Part shown: positions 2,362 to 54,952 of the stretch, piece after piece
Numbering within the stretch: position 1 is the first letter of the stretch
Layout: every line of letters starts with the position of its first letter
The notes under the pieces: generated by a model
The model's database searches: none
What the model saw: only the letters and a program-made list of their open reading frames with translations
What the model was told of the DNA's origin: nothing
Origin: an uncultured Methanosarcinales archaeon
Lineage (GTDB): Archaea; Nanobdellota; Nanobdellia; Woesearchaeales; JAHJBD01
Assembly: GCA_964534665.1 (NCBI GenBank)
Contig: CAZHRT010000002.1
Span: 42,231 to 106,230, forward strand
Reading direction: 5' to 3'
Length of the DNA: 64,000 nt
Made by a program: the position numbers and the translations under genes

Positions 2362-4251
<1,890 letters not shown>

Positions 4252-14285: not shown

Positions 14286-15229
14286 TCTACATCCTCTTTA
14301 ATATCTTTATCTTTAATATTTTTTCCAGGCCATATCTTAACACCTGGTTGAATAGTAACGCCTTCAAGTTTACAATCATCAGCTATAATTGCACCTAACT
14401 TACTATCTGATTCTATTTTACCATTAAAAATAACATTATCACCAATAATAGAATTTTTAACAATAGAACCTTTAGCTATTTTAACATTATCCATTATTAT
14501 TGAGTTTTCAACTTCTCCTTCAATTACACAATCTTCACCAATTGCATTTCCTTTAATACCAATCAATTCTTTAAACTTAAACAAATCTTCAGGATAACCA
14601 ATTGATGTCCACTGTTTAGCCTTAACATAATTAATATCTTCTTTTTTTGCTAACTCTTTGATACTATCAGTAATTTCATATTCGCCCCTCTTAGACTTCT
14701 TTAAATTCTCAATTAAAGGAAAAATCTTTTCATCCAAAACATACAAAGCACAATTTGCTAAGTTTGAGAAATATTTCTGAGGCTTTTCAACAATATTCTT
14801 AACTTTTGTTCCTATCAATTCCAAAACTCCAAAATTTTCAGGATTATTAACTTCTTGAGCTAAAACACAATAATCATATTCTAAACATTTTTTAATATCT
14901 TCTTTATAATAAAGGTCATCTCCCATCAAAAGCACAAACCTTTCTTTTATTATATCTTTAACTTGCAATACTGCATTGCCTGTTCCTAAAGCATCTGGTT
15001 GTTCAACATAACTTAATTTCAAATCTTGATATTTTTCACCAAAATACTCTTTAATCATTTCTTTTTTATAATTCACAACAAGAATTACTTCATCAACCAA
15101 CCCGTTTAATTGGTCTAAATTATACTCTAATAATGTTTTACCAGCTACTTTAAGCAAAGGTTTTGGCTTAGTTACTGTCAATGGATATGTCCTGGTAGAT
15201 TTACCAGCAGCGAGTATTACTGCTTTCAT
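14282..15229 (-). CDS. sugar-1-phosphate nucleotidyltransferase with C-terminal left-handed beta-helix (GlmU/RmlA-like)
   Basis: MKAVILAAGKSTRTYPLTVTKPKPLL; hexapeptide repeats IGDNVIFNGKIE... Confidence 0.8.
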   Translation of the reverse strand: MKAVILAAGKSTRTYPLTVTKPKPLLKVAGKTLLEYNLDQLNGLVDEVILVVNYKKEMIKEYFGEKYQDLKLSYVEQPDALGTGNAVLQVKDIIKERFVLLMGDDLYYKEDIKKCLEYDYCVLAQEVNNPENFGVLELIGTKVKNIVEKPQKYFSNLANCALYVLDEKIFPLIENLKKSKRGEYEITDSIKELAKKEDINYVKAKQWTSIGYPEDLFKFKELIGIKGNAIGEDCVIEGEVENSIIMDNVKIAKGSIVKNSIIGDNVIFNGKIESDSKLGAIIADDCKLEGVTIQPGVKIWPGKNIKDKDIKEDVE

Positions 15230-16473
15230 TTTAATTTGACTGATTTAGTACGTTCTTTAACATAAGGATCTTTAATCATTTTCTTGATAAGATCTTTTGC
15301 TGTTTTAAACGCCCTTTTATCTTTAGCATAAATTATTCCAGTTTTTATAAAGGTGTGCTTATGCTTTTTCTTAAAGTGCTTTACAAATTCTTTAGAACTA
15401 ACAGGTGGTCCTTTATGAACAATTGTTAAAGGTTTAACCTCTTTTTTAATTATAAAATAAATTGTTGACTTGTCTTCATTATATAACAATCCTTCATCAA
15501 TTAGATTAAATTCATGTCTTGCTAATTCATTTTTAATTAAAGAAATTATTTTTAATAATTTGCATCCAACAACATCTTCTTTACCTTTAACATTTTCAAT
15601 ATTTAAAGTAATTAATTCATTTTTACCAGCTTTTTTCTTAAGATCAATTTCATGCTTCTTAAAGAATTTTATTGATGGTCTTTTAAGAAATTGTTTTGAT
15701 TTCTTAATAAATAATTCAAAATTATCTTCACTCAATGCAGCTGCAGCATTTCTACCTGCTTGAACAGGATCAATTACAATTAAAGGTGATAATAACTTGC
15801 TTGTGTTAAGTTCCATCAACACATTTTTACCTTTATGATATCTTTCAAAATCAATTACATCTTTATCTTTCCATTTCGCTGCTGCTTTTATTAATTTAAG
15901 AAATGAACCATAATTTATAGTTAATATCTCACATACATATCCTGAAAATCCTTTGATATAAGATTCAGCACCATACAGATTATTTGCTTTACAAAATGCT
16001 TTGGTTAACCTAATTTCATCAACTACTTTCTTATGTTTAGAAACCCATTTAGCATGTAATGGAGATATATCAGTTATATTCCTAGCTTTATCAGCTTTAG
16101 TTATATTTAATATTGGAATTATTTCATATGTGAATCCTTTGATATCAACTTGAAAATAATCTCTTGAACCATGTAATCTTACTGCTTTAGGATAAACTTT
16201 TCTTAATGGTTTTTCTAATAAGTCAGATATTTTATCACTTTTATCTTTATATTTATTATAATCAAACATTACAAAGAAATCTGCATCATGCGCATCTTTA
16301 AGCCATGTGTTTTTAGCAGCTGAACCACCCACTACAACTTTCGCATCTTTAACATTAAATTTAACAAAATCATCCACACATTTCTGTGCTTTTTTCTTGT
16401 CTTCAATTGACGGCTTTACAAGTTCCATTGCTTGCGCTAAAACTTTCTTCATTTTAACTAAAAATGCCCTCAA
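15226..16473 (-). CDS. cca: CCA-adding tRNA nucleotidyltransferase, archaeal class I
   Basis: VVVGGSAAKNTWLKDAHDADFFVMF (GS...DxD polymerase-beta-type motif), ~415 aa. Confidence 0.8.
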   Translation of the reverse strand: MRAFLVKMKKVLAQAMELVKPSIEDKKKAQKCVDDFVKFNVKDAKVVVGGSAAKNTWLKDAHDADFFVMFDYNKYKDKSDKISDLLEKPLRKVYPKAVRLHGSRDYFQVDIKGFTYEIIPILNITKADKARNITDISPLHAKWVSKHKKVVDEIRLTKAFCKANNLYGAESYIKGFSGYVCEILTINYGSFLKLIKAAAKWKDKDVIDFERYHKGKNVLMELNTSKLLSPLIVIDPVQAGRNAAAALSEDNFELFIKKSKQFLKRPSIKFFKKHEIDLKKKAGKNELITLNIENVKGKEDVVGCKLLKIISLIKNELARHEFNLIDEGLLYNEDKSTIYFIIKKEVKPLTIVHKGPPVSSKEFVKHFKKKHKHTFIKTGIIYAKDKRAFKTAKDLIKKMIKDPYVKERTKSVKLK

Positions 16474-32765: not shown

Positions 32766-33155
32766 TTATTCTTCTCTAATCATTGGTGGTACAGGATAAT
32801 AAAAATAATTGTAAATAATATCATACATTACATTTATACAAAACTCAAACTGTGTTGCACTTGTTAAATTATTCAACTCTTGAACCATCATGTCAATAAC
32901 TCCAACAGATTCTCTATTTTCAGGGGTAACTTTTTCCCAATCTGGCATATGATCTTCAAATCTTAAAGAAGGATTCCTTGTTTTTTTCATTCTATAATCT
33001 TGTTCTTTAAAATCTAGATAATGTTCTCTCCATGTTTTTATTGGATGTTCTTGTATATATCCTACAACAGCATTAAAGCCGTTTTCATCATACACCCTTC
33101 TAGCCATATAAATAGAATTATAATAATCTTGATTTAGTGGTATTCTTTGTGCCAT
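32766..33155 (-). CDS. hypothetical protein, operon gene 8
   Basis: 129 aa; tight spacing (10 nt) after upstream gene. Confidence 0.4.
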   Translation of the reverse strand: MAQRIPLNQDYYNSIYMARRVYDENGFNAVVGYIQEHPIKTWREHYLDFKEQDYRMKKTRNPSLRFEDHMPDWEKVTPENRESVGVIDMMVQELNNLTSATQFEFCINVMYDIIYNYFYYPVPPMIREE

Positions 33156-33164
33156 ATTTTTATA

Positions 33165-33956
33165 TTACTCTAAAAACAAGTCTCTACCTAACCTTCTTAG
33201 CTTATCTCTGTTCCAGTTAACAACAGCTTGCAAGAAAACTACATTCATTGGATTATCCATGTTTAACAACTCTTCTAAGTCTTCTTGTTTAACTTCAGGA
33301 TCAGATATCCTTTCATGGAATGCTTTGTAACACAATAATTCTCTTAGTTCAGTCATTGTTTGAGCAGCTTCAAGCCTTGCTTCATATCCTGGTAAAACTT
33401 CTTCATCCTCACCAAAGAAAGCTAGATAACAATTTGCAGCATACGCAGGGTCAGCACCTTCAGAAATGTCAGTAAATGCCGGATGTTTTCTAAAAAAATC
33501 AACATATTCATCAGAATTCATATCATTTTTTGGTAACTCTGATTGAACTTCCCCTTCAGGTGTTTTCAATATTGCTTTATACAATTTTGTGCCTGCAACC
33601 ATAACTACTTTATCTAAACTACTTCCTTTATAACACGCACCTAACCTAACTGGTTCTTTCTTTTCTTCCTCTTCTTCATCACCATGATAACCTCTACGTC
33701 GTCTTTTATTTGGTATTAAAATAATTCTCTTTTTAGTATACCTATAACATTCATCAGCCAAAGCTAATTTAGGAACACAATTCTCAGAACCGTCTGCTTT
33801 AGTTGTTAACATTGTAACTTGTGCAGGTAAATGTTCAATCATGTAATGTGCAAGTAAACTATTTCTTACACTTCTTGATGATAAATGTGTATATTGTACA
33901 TATGGTACTTGATGTGCAAATACATTTGTAACATTATCTGCGTGGTCTTGCAACAT
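33165..33956 (-). CDS. hypothetical protein, operon gene 7
   Basis: 263 aa; acidic EEEEEKKE patch; overlaps upstream gene. Confidence 0.4.
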   Translation of the reverse strand: MLQDHADNVTNVFAHQVPYVQYTHLSSRSVRNSLLAHYMIEHLPAQVTMLTTKADGSENCVPKLALADECYRYTKKRIILIPNKRRRRGYHGDEEEEEKKEPVRLGACYKGSSLDKVVMVAGTKLYKAILKTPEGEVQSELPKNDMNSDEYVDFFRKHPAFTDISEGADPAYAANCYLAFFGEDEEVLPGYEARLEAAQTMTELRELLCYKAFHERISDPEVKQEDLEELLNMDNPMNVVFLQAVVNWNRDKLRRLGRDLFLE

Positions 33957-34944
33957 TTTTCATTACCTCACAACATTTTAAGAATTGATCATAATCAATT
34001 TCTGCCATATAAATTTGATGATCAGCTTCATCAGTAAAATTAGGTCCACAAATTGTAAGCAATTGTCTTACAACACCAGATTTACGGAATATTCCTTTTC
34101 TTTCATAATAATCATAAACTGTTTTTCTTATTGTTTCTCTAAATGCATCCGCAGGGGTTTCATTAGGTCCAGGAATCTCATTTTTTCTAACTTCTTTTAT
34201 ACTAACAGTCTCAACACCATAATCATGATATAAACATACCCTCTTTCCTTCTCTTTTTAAAACAAGGTATCTTCCAGAAAAAGTAGCTTCTACATGCCCC
34301 CTTCTTTTTTGAGCACTATTATGCATTACTCTAATATGACTTTTTCCACCTCTATAATTACCTGTTTCAAACTCTTCAGCAAGAATTTCTAATGGGTCTT
34401 CTTCTTCAAAAGGTTCCTCATCAACAATTTCTGCCATATCTGTTCTTTGTCTTAATGCAACATAATCTCCAACTCTTATCTTAGTACCAGGACTTTGTGT
34501 TGGTATTAATCTTTGTAATGATGTTGGATCATAATTTGCTTGTTCTTCACATGTTCTTACTGTAGTTTGTGTTCCATCCCAATGACTCTGTCTTTTTGCT
34601 GTAACAACACCAATACCTGTTCCACGATTATATCCACCATAAAAACTAAATGAACCAAAAGCAGGAATTCCAACAGCAACAACATCGCCCTCATTAATCT
34701 CTCCACCTTTGTCCATTTTTAAATAAGTGTGTTCTAAACCTAAAGCTCTGATAGTATAATCTAAAAAATTTTCATCTGCTTTTGGTCCATCAACAAACAC
34801 TCCAGTATCAGCCATAATATCTTCCCATAATTGAAATTTAAACCTATCATGGAATAAAGTATTAGCAGTATTTCTAAGTCTCTGAACTAGTGTTTCTAGT
34901 TGAGGTGTTTGTGTTTGTGCAAATGCTCTTACTGCTTTAATCAT
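33934..34944 (-). CDS. hypothetical protein, operon gene 6
   Basis: 336 aa; 4-nt overlap with gene 5. Confidence 0.4.
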   Translation of the reverse strand: MIKAVRAFAQTQTPQLETLVQRLRNTANTLFHDRFKFQLWEDIMADTGVFVDGPKADENFLDYTIRALGLEHTYLKMDKGGEINEGDVVAVGIPAFGSFSFYGGYNRGTGIGVVTAKRQSHWDGTQTTVRTCEEQANYDPTSLQRLIPTQSPGTKIRVGDYVALRQRTDMAEIVDEEPFEEEDPLEILAEEFETGNYRGGKSHIRVMHNSAQKRRGHVEATFSGRYLVLKREGKRVCLYHDYGVETVSIKEVRKNEIPGPNETPADAFRETIRKTVYDYYERKGIFRKSGVVRQLLTICGPNFTDEADHQIYMAEIDYDQFLKCCEVMKNVARPRR

Positions 34945-35849
34945 CTTAGCTTCTCCTCGCCTAGTGCTAAAGTATATTGCAATACAGTATGATAAAACAT
35001 AGTTGGGATATCTATTCTTCCCTGTAATAATCTATCAATATTACATTCTATTACTTGATCATCAACAAATTCTTGGTATGTTTTTATTCCTGTTAATAAA
35101 ACAAGATCAAAAGCAGACTTTGCTTTTCTTAATGGTGCTTCAAAACCTTCAATTGAAGGATAAAAAACATTTGCAGCAATAACTGCTCTTGGGTCTAATG
35201 GTACTAGACATTGACCAGGTTTTTCATAAGGTTCAGTTCTTTCTTTTTTGAAAGTTTTAGGTGTCTTTATTGTGCCTGATTCAGGAAGCCCCCAATGCTG
35301 ATAATAAAGGTGCACCAAAGATTTTGTATAAATTCCAAGGGCAATACCTCTTGCTAACTCATCAATTGGTTTTTGAGCAAAAGCATGTCTTTTTTCTTTA
35401 TACTTTTCCTTATCATCTCTATGTACAAATTCTTCTTCATGTTTATGATTAATTAAATAAGTTTGATGAATTCTTATTAAAGAAATTCTTTTAATTGCAT
35501 CATTGATATTGCCTGCTGAAGCAGCAAGTACAACCCCTAAGAAAGGACTAGTAGCAGAACTCATTGATTTAGTTTCAGAACATAAGTACTCAAGTAAGCA
35601 TATTGTTGAAGCATCGTATAATTCAGGTAAATCACCTTCTACTGTAGCATCATGATCATCCCACATCATAGCCCTTCTTCTACTTTGTCCAACCTCAAAC
35701 TTTGCAGTCTTGCTTCTTGCAAGACAACTAGCTATTTTCATGATAGGATCAAAAGGTTGTCCTTCTAATTCAACCATCTCTTCTTCAGGCGCTTGAACTG
35801 TTTGTTGCCTTAATTCTCTTATAATTGATGCAGTAAGATCATCTGACAT
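34941..35849 (-). CDS. hypothetical protein, operon gene 5
   Basis: 302 aa; 11-nt overlap with E1-like gene. Confidence 0.4.
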   Translation of the reverse strand: MSDDLTASIIRELRQQTVQAPEEEMVELEGQPFDPIMKIASCLARSKTAKFEVGQSRRRAMMWDDHDATVEGDLPELYDASTICLLEYLCSETKSMSSATSPFLGVVLAASAGNINDAIKRISLIRIHQTYLINHKHEEEFVHRDDKEKYKEKRHAFAQKPIDELARGIALGIYTKSLVHLYYQHWGLPESGTIKTPKTFKKERTEPYEKPGQCLVPLDPRAVIAANVFYPSIEGFEAPLRKAKSAFDLVLLTGIKTYQEFVDDQVIECNIDRLLQGRIDIPTMFYHTVLQYTLALGEEKLR

Positions 35850-37287
35850 TGTGTTCTAAAGCACCTCCTTTAACATGGTTGCAAACTCCATCCTTATTTT
35901 GTACAAATAATCTTCCAGGTTGTTGTGGATCATAGGTGACCATTCCATTAAATACAGCACCATATTGTTCTGGAAGAAATATGTTAGCTAACATCATTGA
36001 TGATAAAGCACCAACACTTTGATTTATCCAAGTATTTTGTGGAGTAAATTCTCTACCACAACTCTGTCTTCTTTTAGCTTCATCTTTTTCTCCAAGATCA
36101 TTAATACCAAAATTACAATCAAAACATAATGTTGTATTAGGAACATAAACTTCAAGGTCAAAACCATCAGACCGTCCTGATGCACTTACTAAAGGTGTAA
36201 AATCTCCTATTGCTCTATGGCTTACTAACATTCTAGAATATAAATTATCAAACCCATCAAAATATACATCATATCCTCTTGAAGGGTTCCAATCAGGTGT
36301 AAGTTTCTCTATTATTGCATCTGATTTAGTATCTTGATCAGAGATAAAACTAACTTTACCTTGAGCTGCAAAAGCTTTATCAAAACCTACTCTATCATAA
36401 TAAAGAAATGTTCTAATTACATTTGATCTTTCAACATCATCATAATCAAGAAAATCTACTCTGCCAAAACCTAACCTTGCAAGCCAATAACCAACATTAG
36501 CACCTACAGCACCTGCACCATAAACTAAAGCACTTTTTTCTCTAAACATCTCTGGGTCTAATACCATAAGTTCATCATCAATTGTTTTAGGTCTAAACAT
36601 ATCATCATTATCCCCTAATTTAAAATACAAAGGTGCTGTTGTTGTTTCATCTTTTCCTAATACTGCTTTAACTGCTTCATCAGCAGCAATACCAGACATA
36701 AAAGCAGCTACAATTTCTGTTGTAACATCTAAAGCAGCCCTACTAGCATCAACTTTTTGTTCAAGTGTACTCATGCCATTCATAAAAAGGTGTTTAGATG
36801 GATCTTGACCAGGACGCCAAACTGCCATCTTAGCATAACCTGGTATTGTAGAAGTACTGATAAAAGGAATTTGATTTTTTAATGCATAACTAAGTGCAAC
36901 AGCTTTTGACCTTTCATCTGTAGTACAATCAATTATTACCTTTGAATTTTCTAAAAATAGTGCAGGGTTTCCATATCCTAATTGCCCTTCAATTCCAGCA
37001 ACATTTTGCATGGGGGTCATTTGATTAAAAGCAGAATCATAAGCATGAGCTCTTGCTCCAGGAGAAGTTTCAATATCAATAACTTTTTCATCTTCTCCAG
37101 TTTGCGATGCCCCAACAAGTTTTACTGGCATACCAGACATTGCAAAGGGTAAACCAAAATATTTGCCTGCAACACTATCAAATACAACAGTAACAACAGA
37201 TTTCTGAAGTTTTTCAAGGCCATCTCTACCTACTGCTCTTATCAACCTATCAAATCTATCCATATCTAAATTAGGCACGGCTATCAC
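35839..37287 (-). CDS. tandem-domain ThiF/MoeB/E1-like enzyme (degenerate N-terminal E1-like domain + intact C-terminal adenylation domain)
   Basis: C-domain KSALVYGAGAVGANVGYWLARLGFGRVDFLDYDDVERSNVIRT, YDVYFDGFDNLYSRMLV, PLVSASGRSDGFDLEVYV...LCFDC align block-for-block with E. coli MoeB; N-domain RFDRLIRAVGRDGLEKLQKSVVTVVFDSVAG and KVIIDCTTDERSKAV keep the fold signature but lose the GxGxxG loop. Confidence 0.75.
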   Translation of the reverse strand: MIAVPNLDMDRFDRLIRAVGRDGLEKLQKSVVTVVFDSVAGKYFGLPFAMSGMPVKLVGASQTGEDEKVIDIETSPGARAHAYDSAFNQMTPMQNVAGIEGQLGYGNPALFLENSKVIIDCTTDERSKAVALSYALKNQIPFISTSTIPGYAKMAVWRPGQDPSKHLFMNGMSTLEQKVDASRAALDVTTEIVAAFMSGIAADEAVKAVLGKDETTTAPLYFKLGDNDDMFRPKTIDDELMVLDPEMFREKSALVYGAGAVGANVGYWLARLGFGRVDFLDYDDVERSNVIRTFLYYDRVGFDKAFAAQGKVSFISDQDTKSDAIIEKLTPDWNPSRGYDVYFDGFDNLYSRMLVSHRAIGDFTPLVSASGRSDGFDLEVYVPNTTLCFDCNFGINDLGEKDEAKRRQSCGREFTPQNTWINQSVGALSSMMLANIFLPEQYGAVFNGMVTYDPQQPGRLFVQNKDGVCNHVKGGALEHNVR

Positions 37288-38758
37288 CCATACTAATCAA
37301 TAAAGGAATATAATGTTCAATTATACCTGAAAGATATGCTAAATCTGTTCCTTTAAACCGATCAATAAATTCTCTTCCTAATTCATCTGTTTCAGCATCT
37401 GCCCACGATATTATCATAGGTTTGCTAAGTTTATCAACAGGGGGTTTTAACATCATACCTTCTGCATTTACAATATCTTCAAACAAGGGACCAACTCCTT
37501 GAACAGCATCATCTAAATGATATTCTGATTGTTGCCATTGGTTATCTAAGAATTCTGAAAAAAGTGAAAACATATACATTGAATATTTTGCTTGTTCATC
37601 TGTGCAATGTTCTGTATAATATCTTACGGCATCATAAAATTGCTCAGCAGGGGTTGTTTCTTTGCTACCTTTTGCAACCATTGTTACAGATTCAGATGGC
37701 CAATATTTTTTCCATAAATCATAAGCAGCATCGCCAAACAAACCTTCTTTTGCTCTAAGTGCATTTCTTTTATCTGCATGATGAGAACCAGCATAATGGA
37801 CAGATACAGTCTTTTTATTCCAACTAACTTTTCTGTCAACTTCTTCTTCTAAACTATCCCATGTAAAAGGAATTCCTCTTCCAGAATCAATAACATTAAC
37901 ATCAACAAAAAATGATTCTTCATATGTTCCATCAACTGCACCTTGTGCAAGCAATGCAATCTCACCAAATACTTGGGATGCATCTTGATTATATATCAAA
38001 CTTGTTGCAGTACTAACAAACCTATTTTGTTCAGCAGTAATTCTTACTTGTCTTTCAAGATGTCTTGCAATAACTGCTCTTAAACCACCAACAGGTTCAA
38101 GAACTTGCGCATCTAAACCAATATCTCTAAGAAAAGCTCTTTCTTCATCAACACTACCTAACCCATAAATCAATGTAATGTCATTTTGATCAGCACCAAC
38201 TAACCTTAAACTATCTCCATCTAAAGAAGTTCTAAACCCACTAGTGTGATCAAAACAGTCTGGATGTTGGCTAAGAAATTCAGTTGCTCTTGCTTGCCAA
38301 TGTAAATAATCAGACAAATTCCTAACATCTTTACTCAAAGACCTTACTGGCATTCCAGTACAAAAACCATGTCTATGCACAATACCAGTCATTATTAATT
38401 CTTGATCTGTACCTAATCTACCTTCCCCTTGATTTCTTTGATATAATTCATCTAATGCTCTTTTAGCTTCTATTGGATTAAAATCAACATCACCACCAGT
38501 TACAATCTGTTTAACTTGTAATAATGTATCAATTATCAGTGCTGGGTTATCAGCTTCAGATAAATTATAACCATACCATTCATAATGGTTGCCACTAAGT
38601 TCATCTAATATTACACCTACTGCACTATTTTTTTCATGAGCAACAGTATCAATTGTTACTTCTTGAAAAGGTAAAAGATATGATCTATCTTCTTTTGGAG
38701 CTAAAGCTGCTTGTACTGCCATTAATTCTCTTTCATCAGCTGATCTATCTCCTTGCAC
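37271..38758 (-). CDS. hypothetical protein, operon gene 3
   Basis: 495 aa; overlaps neighbours by 17 and 14 nt. Confidence 0.4.
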   Translation of the reverse strand: MQGDRSADERELMAVQAALAPKEDRSYLLPFQEVTIDTVAHEKNSAVGVILDELSGNHYEWYGYNLSEADNPALIIDTLLQVKQIVTGGDVDFNPIEAKRALDELYQRNQGEGRLGTDQELIMTGIVHRHGFCTGMPVRSLSKDVRNLSDYLHWQARATEFLSQHPDCFDHTSGFRTSLDGDSLRLVGADQNDITLIYGLGSVDEERAFLRDIGLDAQVLEPVGGLRAVIARHLERQVRITAEQNRFVSTATSLIYNQDASQVFGEIALLAQGAVDGTYEESFFVDVNVIDSGRGIPFTWDSLEEEVDRKVSWNKKTVSVHYAGSHHADKRNALRAKEGLFGDAAYDLWKKYWPSESVTMVAKGSKETTPAEQFYDAVRYYTEHCTDEQAKYSMYMFSLFSEFLDNQWQQSEYHLDDAVQGVGPLFEDIVNAEGMMLKPPVDKLSKPMIISWADAETDELGREFIDRFKGTDLAYLSGIIEHYIPLLISMGDSRA

Positions 38759-40178
38759 CCTTTTTTACCTCATGTATATTTGTTAACATATAACCTTGGG
38801 CTTGAGCAGAATCTTTTGTTAATAAAAAACCAGAATCAAGTAATTCTGCTTGTTGATCAAGGTTATAATGTCTATCAATAAAATCTTGTCTAAAACTATC
38901 TAAGAAATTTGTAGTTGCATAATTAAGAAATTCTATAAATCCTTCAGCACTCATAGGAAAATTAGGATATCCACCTACATGACATATTGTTCTTAATTTT
39001 CCATATCTTGTTCTCATGACTGGATCAACAATATTTACTTCTGAATAGAATGGTGCATCTTCTTTTATAGACCCACGATAAGTTACTCCACCTTCATTTT
39101 CATGATAACCAAGATATTGAATTTTTCCTTGTCTAAATACTAAGCCAATTCCAAAATCTCCAGCAAAACCATCATCATCACAATCTTTTGGTAAAAATAG
39201 ATTAGCATCATAAGTTGTTTGTCTTGCAAATTTAGGAATTCTCTTAAACACATAATAAATTTCACCATTACGATAAAAACCAATGTCTCTAAACCTAAAT
39301 TCATCACAATCCATTAACGGCATATACTCAACATCTTTCATAACAACCTTTTCCATATTATGTACTGCATCTCTAATCATTTCAAGTGCAGCAATTCTTA
39401 TTGTATGGGAAAACATACTAGAATAATTAGATTTTATTCTTGAAGCACTGAATAATTTAGGATTGTAAGTTCTAGTTTGACCATCAACACATACATGGAG
39501 GTCTTTATCATCTCCTTCTTTATCTAATTGGTATACTTTTCCTCCCAATATTAACATAGGCACATTTCTACTTACTTTTGAAAATATTGATGCTTCTCTT
39601 ACACTAAGTTCTCTTATTGCATGAGTATCATTTGGTAATTCCTCTGAAGCTAATCCAAAATTATCCCTAAAATCTCTATCCAGTTGTTCTTCAAGCCTTG
39701 CAACAGCGTGTGTCCTAACCTCAACAGTCTTTACTTGTCTCTCAATCTGATCACCCATTGCTTCAGCAATAATTTCTGAACCAGTTGGTACTTCTGTTTT
39801 ACCAGAGACTATTGCATCTACTCTATCTTCTAAAGGTGCAGCTATCATCTTAGGAAATATTTCATCAACAATAAACTTTAACAAATTATATCTGTGCGTA
39901 AAATCAAGAACACTTTTCCCATCCCTTTGTAGATGATCTTCAATATAATCAGTTTTTACAGTTTCAATTTCATCTCTGCTTTCTAATCTTGTTGCTCTTT
40001 CAATATCACTTATAGGTGTTCCACAACTTAAAGGGAAAAAAACTTGGCTGTCACCAACTCTTTGAACTAATGTATTTTCTGTTGCATTAGTTGTTGGCAT
40101 TCCAATAGAATATAGTCTATCACCAAAAAGCACCATGCTTTGACGATTATCAATAGCATGATCCAAAAAGGTCTTCAT
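38745..40178 (-). CDS. hypothetical protein, operon gene 2
   Basis: 477 aa. Confidence 0.4.
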   Translation of the reverse strand: MKTFLDHAIDNRQSMVLFGDRLYSIGMPTTNATENTLVQRVGDSQVFFPLSCGTPISDIERATRLESRDEIETVKTDYIEDHLQRDGKSVLDFTHRYNLLKFIVDEIFPKMIAAPLEDRVDAIVSGKTEVPTGSEIIAEAMGDQIERQVKTVEVRTHAVARLEEQLDRDFRDNFGLASEELPNDTHAIRELSVREASIFSKVSRNVPMLILGGKVYQLDKEGDDKDLHVCVDGQTRTYNPKLFSASRIKSNYSSMFSHTIRIAALEMIRDAVHNMEKVVMKDVEYMPLMDCDEFRFRDIGFYRNGEIYYVFKRIPKFARQTTYDANLFLPKDCDDDGFAGDFGIGLVFRQGKIQYLGYHENEGGVTYRGSIKEDAPFYSEVNIVDPVMRTRYGKLRTICHVGGYPNFPMSAEGFIEFLNYATTNFLDSFRQDFIDRHYNLDQQAELLDSGFLLTKDSAQAQGYMLTNIHEVKKGARR

Positions 40179-40180
40179 TT

Positions 40181-40918
40181 TTACTGAACCATATATTCAA
40201 GATTACCTGGGCTACCCTTTCTTGCTACTGTAGCAGGAGCTCTGTAAACAGTCGGCTTTTTAGGTTGAGCAACCTCAGCAGCTGTTGGTTTACCATCTCC
40301 TTCAGCAATTGTAGCTTGGGCTCTATGTTTACCTTTATGAATTCTAAAATATTGCCTAAATTTCCTTGTTGTTCCTTTATTTACAGGTTGTCCATCTAAA
40401 GTCATAATAACTTCTTCTAAAGCATCATCCCCATGAGCCCTTTCATATGTATCATATAATCCTCTTGCAATTCTTCTATCTGTAGAATCAGTAAATACAC
40501 CTTTATCTTGATTTTGTCTGATTAACTGAACTAGAGCATCATAAGCAGGCATGTCTAATACTGTTGGATTACATACAGCAATTGCACAATCATCAGCTCT
40601 GCTTGTTGGACCAATATGTGCTAAATAAACATCTTGTACTGTTGGTGTAGCAGCAGGCCTTGCGGTTTGTGCAGGTCTAGAAGCAGGTGTAGGTTCTTGG
40701 GTTCTACTTTCTCCTGTAGTAGGTGGTTGATAGCTTGCAAAATCAGCTCTACCAGCACCAGGCCTATACCCTGTAATTTCAATTTCTGTTTGGCCTTTAG
40801 GAACACCAGAAACAAAACAAGTTTTACCACTTGGTAAATTTATTCTTGCATCCTCCTGTCTTCCAAAACCTAGAACTCTAAACTTTTGACCTTCAAATGG
40901 ATTTTCATCATTTGCCAT
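40181..40918 (-). CDS. hypothetical protein, operon gene 1 (Pro/Ala/Thr-rich linker between N- and C-terminal regions)
   Basis: 245 aa; 2 nt before gene 2. Confidence 0.4.
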   Translation of the reverse strand: MANDENPFEGQKFRVLGFGRQEDARINLPSGKTCFVSGVPKGQTEIEITGYRPGAGRADFASYQPPTTGESRTQEPTPASRPAQTARPAATPTVQDVYLAHIGPTSRADDCAIAVCNPTVLDMPAYDALVQLIRQNQDKGVFTDSTDRRIARGLYDTYERAHGDDALEEVIMTLDGQPVNKGTTRKFRQYFRIHKGKHRAQATIAEGDGKPTAAEVAQPKKPTVYRAPATVARKGSPGNLEYMVQ

Positions 40919-49689: not shown

Positions 49690-51395
49690 AAAATATTGTT
49701 TTAGCTGGCAACCCAAATGTTGGAAAATCTGTTTTCTTTAATTATTTTGGTGGTGTGTATGCAGATGTCAGTAATTTTCCAGGTACAACAGTTGAAGTAG
49801 CAAAAACACATTACAAAAATCATCAAATTCTTGATACTCCAGGAATTTATAACTTAGGAAAAGAAAATGATGAAGAAAAAGTAGCATTTGATATAATTAA
49901 AAAGGGAGATGCAATCCTAAATATTGTTGATGCAACCCATTTAGAAAGAGATATTTTCTTAACATTACAATTGATCGAATTAGGTAAACCCTTGATTGTT
50001 GCTTTAAATTTTATGGATGATGCTAAAGAAAATGGTGTTGATATAGATACTAAAAAACTAACAAAACTACTTGGTGTTGATATTATTGAAACAGTTGCAA
50101 CAAAAAATAAAGGATTGGATAAAATTAATTTTAAAAATTTTAAAAAAGGGCATTTAGTAAAATTAACAAAAATAGATTCTTGTAAATCAGCATGTAATGG
50201 TTGCGATCTTGATATGTTTCGAAGAAACAAAGTTGATAACATTATCAATAGCACTGTTAAATATAATTCAGGACCAAAGAAAGTTGGTGAAGTATTTGCT
50301 CGCTTATCAACACACCCTTTTGCTGGTGTAATAATTTTACTATTAATTATGTACTTATTATACTTGTTTGTGGGTGTGTTTGTTGCTCAAACAGTTGTTG
50401 GTGTAACAGAAGAGACAATTATGCAAGGTTATTACGAACCATTTATCATAAATACCCTCAGTAATTTAATTCCTCAAGGATCTGCTATTGGTACAATTGT
50501 ATATGGTGAGTTTGGTTTAATTACTATGACTATAACTTACTTACTAGGTTTATTATTACCCTTAGTGCTAGGTTTTTATCTAGTTCTTTCAATATTAGAA
50601 GATAGTGGTTATCTTCCAAGGTTAGCTGCATTAGTTGATAGATTACTAAATTTTATAGGTTTGAATGGCAAAGCAGTAATTCCTTTAATTCTTGGTCTTG
50701 GTTGTGTTACATGTGCAACAATAACAACAAGAATTCTTAAAACAAAGCGAGAAAAAACAATTGCAACTTCTATCTTACAGTTTGTCATACCTTGTTCTGC
50801 ACAAATAGGCGTTATAGCAGCATTACTTGCAATTGCAGGCAAAAAATACTTGATAGGTTATGTTTTAATCATATTCATTATTCTTGTCTTATTAGGCACA
50901 ATATTAAACAAATTCTTGCCAGGAAAATCTTCACAATTATTATTACACTTGCCTAGAATGAGACTACCAAGAATTAACAATGTTTTAAAGAAAACTTATA
51001 CTAAAACTAAATGTTTTATGAAAGAAGCAACTGTATGGTTCTTTATTGGTGCTTTTATTGTTGGTTTTATGCAAGTTACTGGATTATTGATTAGAATTCA
51101 GGAATGGATAAAACCTTTTGTTGTAGGTTTTTTACAACTTCCAAAAGAAGCAGCTGTTGCTTTTATCATGGGGCTAGTAAGACGAGATTTTGGGGCAGCT
51201 GGTTTTTATAACATGTCATTATCTCCACCACAAATACTAGTTGCTATGGTTACCATCACTTTATTTGTACCATGTATTGCTTCTGCAATGATTTTGTTTA
51301 AAGAACGTGGCTGGAAAACAGGATCTTTTATATGGTTAGGTACATGGATATTTGCTTTCTTAATTGGTGGTATAGTTTCCCATTTAATTATCTAA
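49686..51395 (+). CDS. feoB: ferrous iron transporter FeoB
   Basis: G1 IVLAGNPNVGKS, G-domain then ~8 TM with gate motif regions. Confidence 0.85.
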   Translation: MKNIVLAGNPNVGKSVFFNYFGGVYADVSNFPGTTVEVAKTHYKNHQILDTPGIYNLGKENDEEKVAFDIIKKGDAILNIVDATHLERDIFLTLQLIELGKPLIVALNFMDDAKENGVDIDTKKLTKLLGVDIIETVATKNKGLDKINFKNFKKGHLVKLTKIDSCKSACNGCDLDMFRRNKVDNIINSTVKYNSGPKKVGEVFARLSTHPFAGVIILLLIMYLLYLFVGVFVAQTVVGVTEETIMQGYYEPFIINTLSNLIPQGSAIGTIVYGEFGLITMTITYLLGLLLPLVLGFYLVLSILEDSGYLPRLAALVDRLLNFIGLNGKAVIPLILGLGCVTCATITTRILKTKREKTIATSILQFVIPCSAQIGVIAALLAIAGKKYLIGYVLIIFIILVLLGTILNKFLPGKSSQLLLHLPRMRLPRINNVLKKTYTKTKCFMKEATVWFFIGAFIVGFMQVTGLLIRIQEWIKPFVVGFLQLPKEAAVAFIMGLVRRDFGAAGFYNMSLSPPQILVAMVTITLFVPCIASAMILFKERGWKTGSFIWLGTWIFAFLIGGIVSHLII

Positions 51396-52613
51396 CCAAG
51401 GTTCAATAACTCTATCTAAAGCACCTTGAATATAACTTAAGAAAACTCCATAATTAGTATATGGTATACCTAAACTATTAAGGTCTCTTAATCTTGCAGC
51501 AATTTTTTGAGAAGATATCATGCAACCACCACAATGTATAATCAACTTATATTCCATTAATTTATTATTTTCTTGAAACTCTCTCCCAAAATTATGTTGA
51601 ACAACAACACCAGGATATTTCTGAGACATATATTCAGGAATTTGTTTTGTTCCAATATCTTCACCAATCCTTGAATGATTGCACGCTTCTACAATTAATA
51701 TCTTATCACCCACAACTAAACTATCAAGCATCTTAACACCTTCAACAAATTCATTTAAACGCCCTTTTGAAACATAATTTATCATAACTATGGAAAAAGT
51801 AGTTAACATAATATCCTCTGGCACAAGTTTATGCATGATATCCATTGCTTGACTATCTGTTATAATTGCTTTAGGCCTTTTCTTAAAACTTTCAAGATAA
51901 CTATGAAAACGCATAATTTCTGTTTCATCACCTTGCCTTATTTTAACTAAATCCATTCGATAACAACTAGGATATGCCCAATTTCTTGTGATAAACTCAT
52001 CCACCATTGCTTGAGGCCTTAGATATCTTCCAGTAGGTGTTTCAATATCCATTGGAATATTCAATACATAAAATTCATCTTTTTCAATAAATGGCAATAA
52101 CTCAATTTTCTTATTTTTTGATTCAAAGTTTTCTAAAATAAAATTTAGTAACTCTTGCCTATAATTTTCATCATTAGCTTTAATTCTAATCTTTTTATAA
52201 AACTTCAATAATTTGATTTTATCATCAGCATTATTTTCATCCTCAAACAAATTATAAACTATCAATATTTGTTTATTTAATTCTCGAGCATTTTTTAATA
52301 TCTTATCTTCAGTATCAAGATATTCTTTAGATGGATCAATAACTAACAATACAAGGTCACATTCTTTTAGATCAGAAATAATTTTTAATCGCTTTTTTTC
52401 TCCAAGTTGATCTGTTTCATCATAACCAGCAGTATCAAACAGTTTAACAGGTCCTAAACCATGAATCTCTTGTAAAGTAGTCTTTGTATCAGCAGTTGTT
52501 CCAGGTGTTGAATCAACAATTGAAGTTATTTGTTGAGTTAAAAGATTCATAACACTACTTTTTCCCACATTCATCCTTCCAAATATTCCAATATTATCTC
52601 TGTCTATTAGCAT
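51384..52613 (-). CDS. hydF: [FeFe]-hydrogenase maturase GTPase HydF
   Basis: GIFGRMNVGKSS G1; C-term EACNHSRIG (CxH) and IIHCGGCM (HCxxC) cluster motifs. Confidence 0.7.
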   Translation of the reverse strand: MLIDRDNIGIFGRMNVGKSSVMNLLTQQITSIVDSTPGTTADTKTTLQEIHGLGPVKLFDTAGYDETDQLGEKKRLKIISDLKECDLVLLVIDPSKEYLDTEDKILKNARELNKQILIVYNLFEDENNADDKIKLLKFYKKIRIKANDENYRQELLNFILENFESKNKKIELLPFIEKDEFYVLNIPMDIETPTGRYLRPQAMVDEFITRNWAYPSCYRMDLVKIRQGDETEIMRFHSYLESFKKRPKAIITDSQAMDIMHKLVPEDIMLTTFSIVMINYVSKGRLNEFVEGVKMLDSLVVGDKILIVEACNHSRIGEDIGTKQIPEYMSQKYPGVVVQHNFGREFQENNKLMEYKLIIHCGGCMISSQKIAARLRDLNSLGIPYTNYGVFLSYIQGALDRVIEPWLDN

Positions 52614-53607
52614 AGTTTAACGAGTCACCCCATTCTCCAAACGCAGGTGTCAGACCAGTAGATTTAATCCTTTGCGTTATACAACCTAAACATTCTTCAG
52701 AAGTTTCATTGATGCAAGGTTTATCATCATATAATAGATATTGATTACGATACTTTGTTGGTGTAGTTATTGGCATTATAATATTAGCACCCGCTTTTAA
52801 TCCTAACTCTCTTCCAATAGGATTTAACACCTGTAATGCTGTTGTTGATGCAATATTTATGTTAGGCATTAATATTCTTAAGGCAGCAATCATATTTAAT
52901 GATAAATCAAGATCAGCATTAACATCTTTTCTTAGATATGGTCCCATGCCAACCATATCAACATCAATTTCTTTAAAGAATAAAAGGTCTTTAGCAAGAT
53001 TCTCAATTGTTTGGAACGGAGAATTAATCATAACACCTGTTCCAACCTGAAAACCAATATCTTTTAGATCTTTAAGACACTGTTTTCTAGTATCAAAACT
53101 CATATTAGCTGGGTGTAATCTTTCATAATGTTTTTTATCAGAAGTTTCAATCCTTAATAGATATCTGTGAGCACCAGCATCAAAGAACCTTTGAAATATT
53201 TCTTTAGTTTGTTCACCAACACATAAGGTAATCCCAAGCTTTGGAAATTTCTCTTTAATTTGCTTAACAACATCTTCAACAAAGTCAATAAACTTATAAT
53301 CTTGTCTTTCACCTGATTGTAATACAATTGAACCATAATTAACATCATTACAAAATTTAGCACTATCTAAAATCTCTTGTTTAGTCATCTTATATCTTTT
53401 AACATCTTTACTTTTGCTAATACCACAATACCCACAATCATTATCACAGATATTCGAAAACTCAATTAATCCTCTAAAATAAACCTTATTTTTTACAGTT
53501 TTATCTCTAATTTCAGCAGCTTTCTTATGCAAACTCTTTTGCTCTTCTCCTTTAGCATTCAACTGTTCTAATAATTCAGAAATATAAGTCTCGTTCTCCA
53601 TTTTCAA
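52594..53607 (-). CDS. hydE: [FeFe]-hydrogenase maturase radical SAM HydE (biotin-synthase-like)
   Basis: NICDNDCGYCG CxxxCxxC near N-terminus, ~340 aa BioB-like. Confidence 0.65.
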   Translation of the reverse strand: MKMENETYISELLEQLNAKGEEQKSLHKKAAEIRDKTVKNKVYFRGLIEFSNICDNDCGYCGISKSKDVKRYKMTKQEILDSAKFCNDVNYGSIVLQSGERQDYKFIDFVEDVVKQIKEKFPKLGITLCVGEQTKEIFQRFFDAGAHRYLLRIETSDKKHYERLHPANMSFDTRKQCLKDLKDIGFQVGTGVMINSPFQTIENLAKDLLFFKEIDVDMVGMGPYLRKDVNADLDLSLNMIAALRILMPNINIASTTALQVLNPIGRELGLKAGANIIMPITTPTKYRNQYLLYDDKPCINETSEECLGCITQRIKSTGLTPAFGEWGDSLNYANRQR

Positions 53608-54952
53608 TTCTTTTTAGATATTTGTTTGTTAATTCCTTTCTTTCTTCACTTGGAATATTTTCAATTTCTTTTTTTATAATCTCATTACCTGATTGTTTTG
53701 TTTCAATATCAGCATAATCAACTAAATATTCTTTTAATGTTGTTAGAGCATTTGGTAAACAATGTAATTTAATCAATCCAGGTTTTGCTAAATCCATAAA
53801 ATCCTTGCCAACTCTTCCTAACCTATAACATCCAGTACAAAATGAAGGAACATAACCTTGATTTAGAACTGAACTGATAATTTCCCCTGTAGATCTTGTA
53901 TCATTTAAAGAAAACTGTTCTTCATTTTCAGGGTTTACTATAGATTCTTCATATCCACCAGGGTTAGTTTTTGAACCAGCACTAATTTGGCTAACTCCAA
54001 GATCAAAAACTTGTTTACGCATGTCAGCAGATTCTCTTGTTGATAATATTATCCCTGTATAAGGGACAGCACATCTTAGTACAGCAACTATTTTTTTAAA
54101 ATCCTTATCTGATACTGGGTGAGGTATATTATTTGCAGCAGGTGCGTTCTGTGCAGGTTCTAACCTAGGAACAGATATGGTATGTGGTCCAACATTAAAT
54201 TTTTCATCTAAATGTTTAGCATGTTGTATTAATGCTAACACTTCAAACCTGTAATCATACAATCCAAACAATGCACCAATACCAACATCATTTATTCCAT
54301 TACTTAATGCACGATCCATACATTCGATTCTCCAATTATAATCTGCTTTCTTTCCAGTTGGATGCATTTCCTTATATGTGTCATGATGGTATGTTTCCTG
54401 AAAAACAGTATATGTTCCAATTTTTACATTATTTAAAATCTTAAATTGGTCGTCTGTTAAAGGAGCAATTTCAATATTTATTCTTCTGATTGAATTACCT
54501 TTTGAATCTTTAACAGAATACACAGCTTTTATAGATTTAAAGAAATAATCTAGACTACATTCAGAATTCTCCCCCATTAACATTAATATTCTTTTGTGCC
54601 CTTGTTCAAGAATAAATTTTGTTTCTTTTTTAATTTGATCTAATGTAAGGCAAGTTCTTTTCATAGAAGTATTATCAATTCTAAAACCACAATAAAGACA
54701 ATTATTAGAACAATGATTAGAAACATACAAAGGTGCAAACAAAACTAACCTATTACCATAAATCAATTGCTTAATCTTTGAAGCAGTTTTGAATAACTTT
54801 TGTAGGTTTTCATCATCCTTAATATTAATTAATTTTGCAACATCTTCTAAAGACAATCCTTTAAGCTGTAATGCTTTGTCTAATACGAAATCAACATTCT
54901 GGGGATTAATATCTAACAAAGAGTTAATCAGATTTTCATCAATAAAATTCAT
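53576..54952 (-). CDS. hydG: [FeFe]-hydrogenase maturase radical SAM HydG (ThiH-like tyrosine lyase)
   Basis: SNHCSNNCLYCGF; C-terminal CTGC-x22-C auxiliary-cluster motif. Confidence 0.7.
   Translation of the reverse strand: MNFIDENLINSLLDINPQNVDFVLDKALQLKGLSLEDVAKLINIKDDENLQKLFKTASKIKQLIYGNRLVLFAPLYVSNHCSNNCLYCGFRIDNTSMKRTCLTLDQIKKETKFILEQGHKRILMLMGENSECSLDYFFKSIKAVYSVKDSKGNSIRRINIEIAPLTDDQFKILNNVKIGTYTVFQETYHHDTYKEMHPTGKKADYNWRIECMDRALSNGINDVGIGALFGLYDYRFEVLALIQHAKHLDEKFNVGPHTISVPRLEPAQNAPAANNIPHPVSDKDFKKIVAVLRCAVPYTGIILSTRESADMRKQVFDLGVSQISAGSKTNPGGYEESIVNPENEEQFSLNDTRSTGEIISSVLNQGYVPSFCTGCYRLGRVGKDFMDLAKPGLIKLHCLPNALTTLKEYLVDYADIETKQSGNEIIKKEIENIPSEERKELTNKYLKRIENGERDLYF

Follow-up and report, generated by a model that had tools for sequence, protein, structure and literature searches.

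In the 64,000-nt stretch of contig CAZHRT010000002.1 that was analysed here (the window), a minus-strand gene at 35839..37287 very probably encodes a single-chain, pseudo-dimeric E1-type enzyme, in which an inactive adenylation domain (IAD) is followed by an active one (AAD). The same operon encodes a protein with the signature of a JAMM/MPN+ peptidase, a protein that looks like a ubiquitin-like (Ubl) modifier and a possible E2. This operon is most likely a new, archaeal variant of Bil-like Ubl conjugation. All coordinates given below are positions in the window, and the residues of E1 are numbered according to its 482-aa form, which begins at a GTG codon.

The E1 is a tandem of two adenylation domains

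The Pfam profile PF00899 (ThiF), whose curated cut-off is 28.1 bits, matches the whole E1 in two stretches (E=1.7e-33), and each part of the protein also passes this cut-off on its own, the N-terminal 227 aa with 42.3 bits (E=6.3e-11) and the C-terminal 255 aa with 77.8 bits (E=8.9e-22). The NCBIfam model PRK08328, a ThiF-type model of 231 positions, aligns its positions 5-170 with aa 7-166 of E1. When the family profiles of the N and C halves were compared by hhalign, they matched each other over 190 columns (probability 99.3%, E=1e-20), and judged by these profiles the homology of the two halves is far beyond chance. As both halves pass PF00899 and also match each other, the protein consists of two E1 adenylation domains in tandem.

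Such a fused pair had been proposed in the initial annotation, and the strings on which it was based are all present: RFDRLIRAVGRDGLEKLQKSVVTVVF at aa 11-36 (running RFDRLIRAVG…VVTVVF), FDSVAG at aa 36-41 and VIIDCTTDERSKAV at aa 117-130. Its suggestion that each half be compared with PF00899 gave the scores reported above, and the N-terminal half, which might have missed the ThiF profiles or turned out to have an unrelated fold, lies well over the cut-off.

The start of the gene is ambiguous. GTG at 37287 yields 482 aa and overlaps the upstream gene by 17 nt, while an in-frame ATG at 37263 yields 474 aa and lies 8 nt past the stop of that gene; public gene callers report both forms.

The N-terminal domain is degenerate at its ATP site

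We aligned the nine closest homologues of the E1 (alignment A1) and, separately, 18 N-terminal halves of the family (alignment A6). All ATP-site motifs are degenerate in the IAD, and they are so across the family. The GxGxxG nucleotide loop is replaced by FDSVAG, just as the initial annotation had stated, and the loss is conserved across the family; in more distant relatives the loop is still a partial GxGxxx. The counterpart of the DxxDN motif reads IIDCT[TN][DNS] in A1 and IIDCTNN or IIDATNDP in relatives, and the ribose-binding Asp, the CxxC motif and the crossover Cys are all absent. From its sequence, we consider the IAD to be a catalytically dead, built-in dimer partner.

When the profile of the 18 N halves was run against the PDB, its matches included MoeB (3e-23), ThiF (6.5e-22) and Uba4 (5e-21). 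The inactive parts of eukaryotic enzymes were found as well: NAE1 (7e-13), SAE1 (8.5e-13) and the N-terminal domain of UBA6 (1.6e-12) were among them, and NAE1, SAE1 and the IADs of UBA6, UBA7 and Uba1 together fell at 1e-9 to 1e-13.

Two arginines of the IAD, R11 and R14, correspond to the RYDRQ motif of the relatives. In BilD (Arg9) and in eukaryotic E1s, an arginine from this region of the inactive domain is given to the single ATP site (PMC10557695). By analogy, the IAD probably supplies R11 or R14 to the ATP site of the AAD.

The C-terminal domain keeps all ATP/Mg motifs

The full set of ATP/Mg active-site motifs is present in the C-terminal domain only. The motifs that the initial annotation had called intact are invariant in A1, and so are D281, N289/R292 and K304. 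In a pairwise alignment, Cys410 of the E1 occupies the position of ThiF Cys184, and an 'SC' at this place in the crossover loop is kept in most of the wider E1 family; Cys410 is thus a candidate for the residue that takes the modifier as a thioester. Near the C-terminus, C469…H479 probably completes the Zn site begun by the CxxC motif, by analogy with the way the site of BilD is arranged. The best PDB match of the family profile was MccB (E=7e-13, 51 bits), with ThiF at 45.5 and Uba5 at 41.7 bits and PaaA also among the matches.

The predicted fold resembles the core of canonical E1s

An AlphaFold2 model of the E1, built with the nine-sequence alignment, reached a mean pLDDT of 84.3 and a pTM of 0.89. 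A Foldseek search of the PDB with this model placed eukaryotic single-chain E1s at the top, led by UBA7 (8oif_A, E=6.8e-20, TMq 0.67) and including UBA6 and Uba1 with TMq of ~0.6; about 570-630 columns were aligned, and the whole query was covered. Because the matches to UBA7, UBA6 and Uba1 extend over the whole length, the two halves are predicted to pack as an intramolecular pseudo-dimer, in the manner of the IAD-AAD core of canonical E1s, and this is the arrangement which the initial annotation had expected from structure prediction.

The poorly defined parts of the model are confined to residues 1-13 and to residues 406-417, the crossover loop with C410; judging from the model, this loop is probably flexible. 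The crossover region after C391 comprises only ~25 residues (helix 395-405 and loop 406-417), and the chain ends ~12 residues past C469, inside the beta-strands of the AAD and Zn site. No FCCH or SCCH Cys domain, no ubiquitin-fold domain (UFD) and no large insertion in the IAD is found in the 482-aa E1.

A putative JAMM peptidase is encoded next to the E1

In the 495-aa protein, E60, H128, H130, S140 and D144 are unchanged throughout 8 diverse members of its family. We compared a profile of the N-terminal 230 aa of this family with the PDB (E<10), and 16/17 matches were JAMM deubiquitinases, aligned on HxH…S..D; they included BRCC36 (0.012), Rpn11, archaeal JAMM1, the Rpn11-like protein of Caldiarchaeum and AMSH-like proteins. 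Two distant homologues come just below the threshold when compared with Pfam Prok-JAB/JAB (8e-5 and 0.035), one of them with a Prok-JAB score of 22.9 bits vs a cut-off of 25. By these sequence marks, the 495-aa protein is a JAMM/MPN+ peptidase.

The candidate modifier ends in a conserved glycine followed by an extension

The 245-aa protein consists of an N-terminal domain, a low-complexity linker, a Ubl-like middle domain and a long tail. Among the eight close homologues that were read, seven carry the motif T[VAM]xR[KRI]G[SRG]PG near the C-terminus. In two of them (from loci L004 and L009) the protein ends exactly at that Gly, while the remaining carriers continue for 5-15 poorly conserved residues, for example SRLELLV, GYDMARPASLDYLLK, IESLL or HETLDDLI. 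The modifier of locus L018 is more diverged; it ends in …VVGHPG and has no extension.

Across the wider family, the gene directly upstream of the one for the 477-like protein (the possible E2) usually encodes only 110-150 aa, and the product ends in …E[IL]EVSAVQxGG with a short extension such as LYSLLK, LKLYM or YRN; the small modifier of L064 ends exactly at GG. At three loci we found versions of 224-340 aa that end in …IIIPG plus an extension. The middle domain of the 245-aa protein (aa 94-205) aligns with the small GG proteins in hhalign (E=9.2e-5, probability 59%). The sequences suggest that, relative to these small proteins, the 245-aa protein gained an N-terminal domain and a tail of ~35 residues before Pro-Gly. 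On such sequence features, it looks like a modifier.

The presence of the extension was then set against that of the JAMM gene at the loci where both features were readable. Both were present at 22 loci and both absent at three (L004, L009 and L064); one locus (L018) had the JAMM gene and no extension, and there was none with an extension and no JAMM gene. A one-sided Fisher test gives p = 23/14950 = 0.0015 when no correction is made for shared ancestry, and as the loci are phylogenetically related, the test overstates their independence. Perfect covariation of the two features is ruled out by L018. Still, an extension was never found without a JAMM gene, as expected if the peptidase matures the precursor. 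In the Bil pathway, BilC trims the BilA precursor (PMC10557695; PMC11601603).

The extensions (window 40184..40204; L002, L015, L016, L019 and L027-L057) often share the pattern L-[ED/x]-x-[LMY]-[LVI], for example NLEYMVQ, LYGLLR or LETYL. This hydrophobic pattern may be a recognition element of the peptidase.

The 477-aa protein is a possible E2

Cys399 is the only column that is invariant in the 477-aa protein and its homologues. In most 477-like members, HP[FCY] stands ~10 residues before the equivalent of this cysteine and a long helix follows it; the window subfamily has DPV in place of HP[FCY]. The succession HP[FCY]…Cys…helix recalls the HPN…C…α2 layout of E2s and points to a possible E2.

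The E1 is related to, and distinct from, known systems

Among known systems, the Bil pathway of bacteria comes closest, in particular that of Type II from Ensifer aridi (PMC10557695; PMC11601603). The Bil genes follow each other as BilA(Ubl)-BilB(E2)-BilC(JAB)-BilD(E1) (PMC11601603), and the window has this order as well. The two systems further resemble each other in that an Arg of the IAD is presumably donated to the ATP site, that crossover-loop Cys and C-terminal ligands form a Zn site, in the window a probable one, and that FCCH, coiled-coil and UFD are absent from BilD and window E1 alike. In Bil, moreover, the Ubl is made with a C-terminal extension which the JAB peptidase removes, as we propose for the window. 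Of the components of a Bil operon, the JAB and a Gly-terminal modifier are present in the window and the E2 is a candidate only.

The differences are nevertheless considerable. The host of the window is archaeal, whereas Bil is bacterial. The N-domain of BilD is PF14459 (Prok-E2_C), while the window IAD is PF00899 and gives no match to PF14459 in hmmscan up to E=10; and BilD has a mobile helical CYS domain of ~80 aa (PMC10557695), whereas the window Cys lies in a crossover loop of ~25 residues, as in ThiF, MoeB and Uba5. BilD was not among the PDB sequence matches of the E1, family or N-half profiles. On these three grounds, no PF14459, no CYS domain and no PDB sequence match, we rule out that the E1 is a member of the BilD family. 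The partners are also unrelated at the sequence level: the 477-aa E2 candidate has no detectable E2 family signature, the window modifier ends in PG after a long tail, and three extra conserved genes follow the E1. As BilD is itself a single-chain IAD-AAD E1 known from bacteria (PMC10557695), the architecture is rare among prokaryotes, but not unprecedented. The eukaryote-like order of domains that the initial annotation had seen in an archaeal protein is confirmed.

With eukaryotic E1s (Uba1, UBA6 and UBA7, and the NAE1-UBA3 and SAE1-SAE2 pairs), the window enzyme shares the order of IAD and AAD, the core fold and the best Foldseek matches. However, it is half their size or less and has neither FCCH/SCCH nor UFD, and the likeness is confined to the IAD-AAD core. 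If PDB bit scores are taken as a rough proxy for phylogeny, neither half appears specifically eukaryote-like in sequence, the best matches being MoeB, ThiF, Uba4, MccB and Uba5. Indeed, MoeB, ThiF, Uba4 and UbaA are the closest sequence relatives of both halves. The CxxC Zn motif occurs in them too, and so does a crossover-loop Cys where ThiF has Cys184; but each of their chains holds a single domain, and two chains pair symmetrically into a homodimer with two active sites, in contrast to the fused pair of the window, one member of which is dead. The window E1 also reaches no NCBIfam equivalog cut-off and has no sulfur-transfer context, unlike MoeB and ThiF.

The remaining systems are further away. 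The E1-like proteins of the SAMP/UbaA system and of Caldiarchaeum and Asgard archaea have a single adenylation domain. In Caldiarchaeum and Asgard archaea, Ub, E2 and RING are recognisable by sequence, whereas the window partners other than the E1 are without a family match. The likeness to Haloferax SAMP/UbaA and to Caldiarchaeum and Asgard systems lies in the archaeal host, an E1-like protein, a JAMM/Rpn11-like protein and a Gly-terminal precursor modifier (PMC6043591, PMC5654768). In Bub systems, JAB and E1 are fused in BubCD, a homodimer that lacks a catalytic Cys and works by oxyester chemistry (10.1101/2024.11.21.623953); in the window, JAB and E1 are separate genes, Cys410 is conserved and there is no DUF6527 protein, and the PDB match of BubCD to the family profile is weak (E=3e-6). 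Cap2 of type II CBASS is a homodimeric E2-E1 fusion, while the N half in the window is a ThiF domain and no CD-NTase is present. PADLOC E1-E2 models match the E1 mostly at aa ~245-317, that is, over ~60-80 residues around the P-loop.

Proposed pathway and alternative explanations

From the domain homology, the loss and retention of motifs, the pseudo-dimer fold, the synteny, the JAMM motif and the Gly-terminal modifiers with extensions described above, we infer a chemistry, an E2 role, targets and a purpose for this operon. It is, in our opinion, rather probable that it encodes a Ubl conjugation pathway of the following kind, consisting of a single-chain E1, a JAMM peptidase, a modifier and an E2-like carrier. 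The JAMM peptidase would cut the extension off the 245-aa modifier and so bare Gly238 (…RKGSPG), the carboxylate of which would be adenylated by the AAD with ATP-Mg, the IAD acting as structural partner and arginine donor. The modifier would then move to Cys410 in the flexible crossover loop as a thioester, and from there it would be handed to Cys399 of the 477-aa protein in the role of E2-like carrier. Ligation to a lysine of the target would follow, and the 302-, 336- and 263-aa proteins may help to select that target.

Several observations speak against this proposal. The profile of the small Ubl-like proteins matched no Ubl, ThiS or MoaD in the PDB or Pfam; one modifier relative gave a marginal match to TGS, a beta-grasp domain (E=0.053). 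The window modifier ends in Pro-Gly after a tail of ~35 residues, not in Gly-Gly directly after a beta-strand, and the crossover-loop Cys is missing in a minority of distant relatives. To these must be added the two reservations that came with the extension tally, i.e. the exception at L018 and the common ancestry of the loci.

An alternative in which the proposed E2 step falls away is that conjugation proceeds directly from the E1, as in the SAMP/UbaA system, and that the 477-aa protein is, for example, a cysteine deconjugase, an adaptor or the main target. SAMPylation in Haloferax is not known to require more than UbaA. Neither sequence nor Foldseek ties the 477-aa protein to E2 folds, and its N-terminal 280 residues form beta/helical modules unrelated to E2s; the invariant Cys399 and its surroundings, on the other hand, are what recalls an E2. 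We consider this alternative unlikely. It is also conceivable that the E1 activates a sulfur carrier, as in the ThiS/ThiF, MoaD/MoeB, CysO/MoeZ/Mec+ and QbsE/QbsC/QbsD systems, so that a Gly-terminal carrier becomes thiocarboxylated and the JAMM protein only matures it. For QbsD and Mec+, both JAMM peptidases, the removal of residues behind the GG of a sulfur carrier is indeed known, the small modifiers look ThiS/MoaD-like ('…VNGK…GG'), and both halves of the E1 are nearest in sequence to MoeB, ThiF and Uba4. However, no rhodanese, cysteine desulfurase or recognisable biosynthetic enzyme occurs in any operon examined, the NCBIfam scores are far below the cut-offs (ThiF 72.8 vs 275 bits, MoeB 59.5 vs 266 bits), and the window modifier, with its 245 aa, has several domains and a long flexible tail. 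Nor was the enzyme seen to group with two-domain bacterial ThiF paralogues of sulfur-carrier pathways, an affinity that the initial annotation had held up as the counter-case. In addition, a pseudo-dimeric E1 has so far been known only from conjugation pathways (PMC10557695), and altogether a sulfur-carrier function seems to us improbable.

The position of MccB at the head of the PDB matches, with PaaA also in the list, raises yet another idea, namely that the AAD adenylates a C-terminal carboxylate in order to make a modified peptide or natural product. The margin of MccB over ThiF and Uba5 is small, though, and neither a short precursor-peptide gene, nor an MccB-type N-terminal peptide clamp, nor an export or immunity gene is found, while a JAMM peptidase together with GG/PG-terminal proteins of 120-270 aa fits the logic of Ubl systems. 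Peptide or small-molecule tailoring of this type is therefore very improbable.

Implications of the conjugation pathway

Returning to Ubl conjugation, a search of the literature with partial coverage found no description of an archaeal IAD-AAD E1 or of a Ubl system in Woesearchaeota or other DPANN archaea. We suggest, tentatively, that the locus represents an undescribed ubiquitination-like pathway of DPANN/Woesearchaeota-type archaea, with a modifier that has a cleavable tail, an HPx…C carrier, a JAMM protein, a pseudo-dimeric E1 and lineage-specific partners. The E1 would in this case be a tandem duplication of a MoeB/ThiF-type domain, still recognisable as such in both halves. The 'eukaryotic' IAD-AAD design would then either have arisen here independently, or the E1 would be an intermediate that survives between the homodimeric ThiF/MoeB enzymes and the canonical and BilD E1s. 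If conjugation is confirmed, this would apparently be the first Ubl-conjugation system described in DPANN archaea, which have minimal genomes and host-dependent lifestyles.

For a long time, the asymmetric E1 core with one inactive and one active half was taken for a hallmark of eukaryotes; BilD (2023-24) extended it to bacteria, and the window family extends it to archaea. A dead half that is still plainly ThiF, combined with a candidate catalytic Cys in a simple crossover loop, is the state expected soon after duplication and before a Cys domain was gained. An E1 of ~480 aa may thus serve as a small and tractable model of how an E1 turns asymmetric and of where the canonical E1 arose, and the operon offers candidates for new families: the modifier, the possible E2 and three unannotated partners. 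An accessory, stress or antiviral role of the operon is plausible because of its sporadic distribution.

The operon keeps its order while its surroundings change

On the minus strand, eight closely spaced and in part overlapping genes make up the cluster at 32766..40918. The E1 gene stands fourth in it, and the products are, in order, 245, 477, 495, 482 (the E1), 302, 336, 263 and 129 aa long. Their positions and those of the main motifs are collected in the table. None of the seven neighbours of the E1 has a usable match in Pfam, PADLOC, NCBIfam or PHROGs, and the same searches with distant homologues of the neighbours were empty save for weak JAB matches.

Table. Positions in the window of the operon genes and of the main features of their products
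Feature	Position	Strand	Evidence or remark
Candidate modifier, 245 aa	40181..40918	-	first gene of conserved operon
C-terminal motif R233-K-G-S-P-G238, presumed mature end and adenylation site	40205..40222	-	conserved in homologues
Seven-residue extension NLEYMVQ, presumed pro-peptide cut by JAMM	40184..40204	-	variable; co-occurs with JAMM gene
Candidate E2-like carrier, 477 aa	38745..40178	-	single universally invariant Cys
Cys399 of 477-aa protein	38982..38984	-	sole invariant column among 24 homologues that are 14-23% identical to the window protein
495-aa protein with N-terminal JAMM/MPN+ metallopeptidase domain	37271..38758	-	invariant motif; PDB profile matches
H128-x-H130 … S140 … D144 of JAMM motif	38327..38377	-	E60 at 38579..38581
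E1-like activating enzyme, 482 aa	35839..37287	-	ORF; Pfam ThiF; alignment A1; AlphaFold2 model
IAD, aa 1-227	36607..37287	-	PF00899 42.3 bits; A6 profile vs PDB; hhalign vs AAD 99.3%
R11-F-D-R14 motif, candidate arginine finger	37246..37257	-	both Arg invariant in A1 and A6
Nucleotide loop FDSVAGKY, degenerate (GxGxxG lost)	37159..37182	-	subfamily consensus FDSxxGKY
IIDCTTDE, IAD counterpart of DxxDN Mg/catalytic motif	36913..36936	-	second Asp lost
Linker and AAD, aa 228-482	35842..36606	-	PF00899 E=8.9e-22; PDB matches ThiF 2e-8, MccB 7e-13 with profile
Intact GxGxxG loop G257-A-G259-A-V-G262	36502..36519	-	invariant in A1
YFDGFDNL, Mg-binding/catalytic Asp motif, D344 and D347	36241..36264	-	invariant in A1; DCVDNF in relatives
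C388-x-x-C391, first half of structural Zn site	36115..36126	-	invariant in A1; aligns with ThiF CxxC
Cys410, short crossover loop, candidate thioester-forming cysteine	36058..36060	-	invariant in A1
C469 … H479, probable second half of Zn site near C-terminus	35851..35883	-	invariant in A1
Conserved partner, 302 aa	34941..35849	-	start overlaps E1 end; syntenic in close and distant operons
Conserved partner, 336 aa	33934..34944	-	synteny in close subfamily; no family match
Conserved partner, 263 aa	33165..33956	-	conserved in close subfamily
ORF at operon end, 129 aa	32766..33155	-	membership doubtful; codon-position GC host-like

The order 245-477-(495)-E1-302-336-263 is kept at every close locus, whereas the flanking genes differ each time; the operon is thus a mobile or sporadically retained module. 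The core, made up of the Ubl-like, 477-like, JAMM and E1 genes, is kept at distant loci and at many of 80 metagenome loci. In distant operons, the N-terminal part of the 302-type protein sits within proteins of 826-965 aa encoded directly after the E1. No equivalent of the 129-aa ORF occurs in the other operons compared. Over its last ~60 residues, the 263-aa protein is similar to the C-terminal end of the 302-aa family (blastp 1e-4 to L010 and L002; HMM cross-match in L018), which suggests, at the level of sequence, that these two partners have a common domain.

The composition of the operon is unusual for the window. Its proteins contain 5.1% Lys vs 9.9% in the rest of the window, 5.2% vs 9.9% Ile, 6.5% vs 3.6% Arg and 7.6% vs 4.8% Ala, and GC at codon positions 1/2 is 0.50/0.38 vs 0.41/0.31. 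GC at the third position (GC3), on the other hand, is 0.14 vs 0.17, and as it is this low, the synonymous sites of the operon look fully adapted to the AT-rich genome, whereas the proteins themselves remain 'foreign' or strongly constrained in their composition. With GC3 as low as or below that of the host, we reject recent horizontal transfer as the cause of the odd composition.

Two further arrangements were seen among the related loci. At L032:3-7188, two related systems stand side by side on a single contig, a 477-like, JAMM and 302-like set being followed by a second 477-like gene and an E1 without a JAMM gene. A third, more distant type of operon (L067-L099, e.g. L078:9001-10152, L092, L096 and L098) encodes two-domain E1-like proteins of ~413-427 aa, preceded by an ORF of ~90 aa and followed by genes for ~127, 372, 150 and 370 aa; HMMs of the JAMM and 477-like families had no match in these operons. 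Possibly, these operons use the same E1 architecture for another pathway.

The E1 family is archaeal

A word-indexed search of 5.8 billion clusters yielded nine close homologues of the E1 with 46-54% identity, two of which are named 'Candidatus Woesearchaeota archaeon'. Patterns derived from A1 matched only twice when one genome per species was scanned for 185,579 species, in both cases in metagenome-assembled genomes (MAGs) of Woesearchaeota, and for the close subfamily they gave no match in metagenome contigs or viral contigs. The wider family is considerably larger. An exhaustive HMMER search of 1.84 billion representatives found 62 proteins at E<1e-30; among the 150 best matches, 126 have lengths of 420-560 aa, and the match to the profile often spans both domains. 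The IAD of the wider family reads RYDRQxRIWG … IxGxxxLAxY … IIDATNDP and its AAD VVGAGALGNF … DCVDNF … CLDCQ … SC. A scan of metagenomes with a six-member alignment of the wider clade gave at least 369 relatives among the first 600 pattern matches, and metagenomes of groundwater and sediment contain several hundred related loci or more.

As the only names attached to members of the wider family are Woesearchaeota or 'archaeon', the E1 family is archaeal. Homologous loci carry archaeal genes, namely those for TBP, MCM, eIF2, Rpo subunits of RNA polymerase and Nop10, and the window itself contains an archaeal class I CCA-adding enzyme (15226..16473, minus strand). This enzyme, together with TBP, MCM and eIF2 at homologous loci, indicates an archaeal host. 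A DNA gyrase B subunit is encoded at 2365..4251 on the plus strand of the window.

A few kb upstream of the homologous operon in L004, an intein with a LAGLIDADG endonuclease splits an MCM helicase gene (L004:2540-6946, 1468 aa). In the window, a MoxR-type AAA+ ATPase (332 aa) and a von Willebrand factor A protein (402 aa), encoded at 9318..11490 on the minus strand, form a classic MoxR-VWA couple. Finally, at 51384..54952, also on the minus strand, the gene for a HydF GTPase (409 aa) has as neighbours one for a radical-SAM/BATS protein (458 aa) and a 337-aa ORF; the group looks like a set for [FeFe]-hydrogenase maturation in an archaeon of DPANN type.

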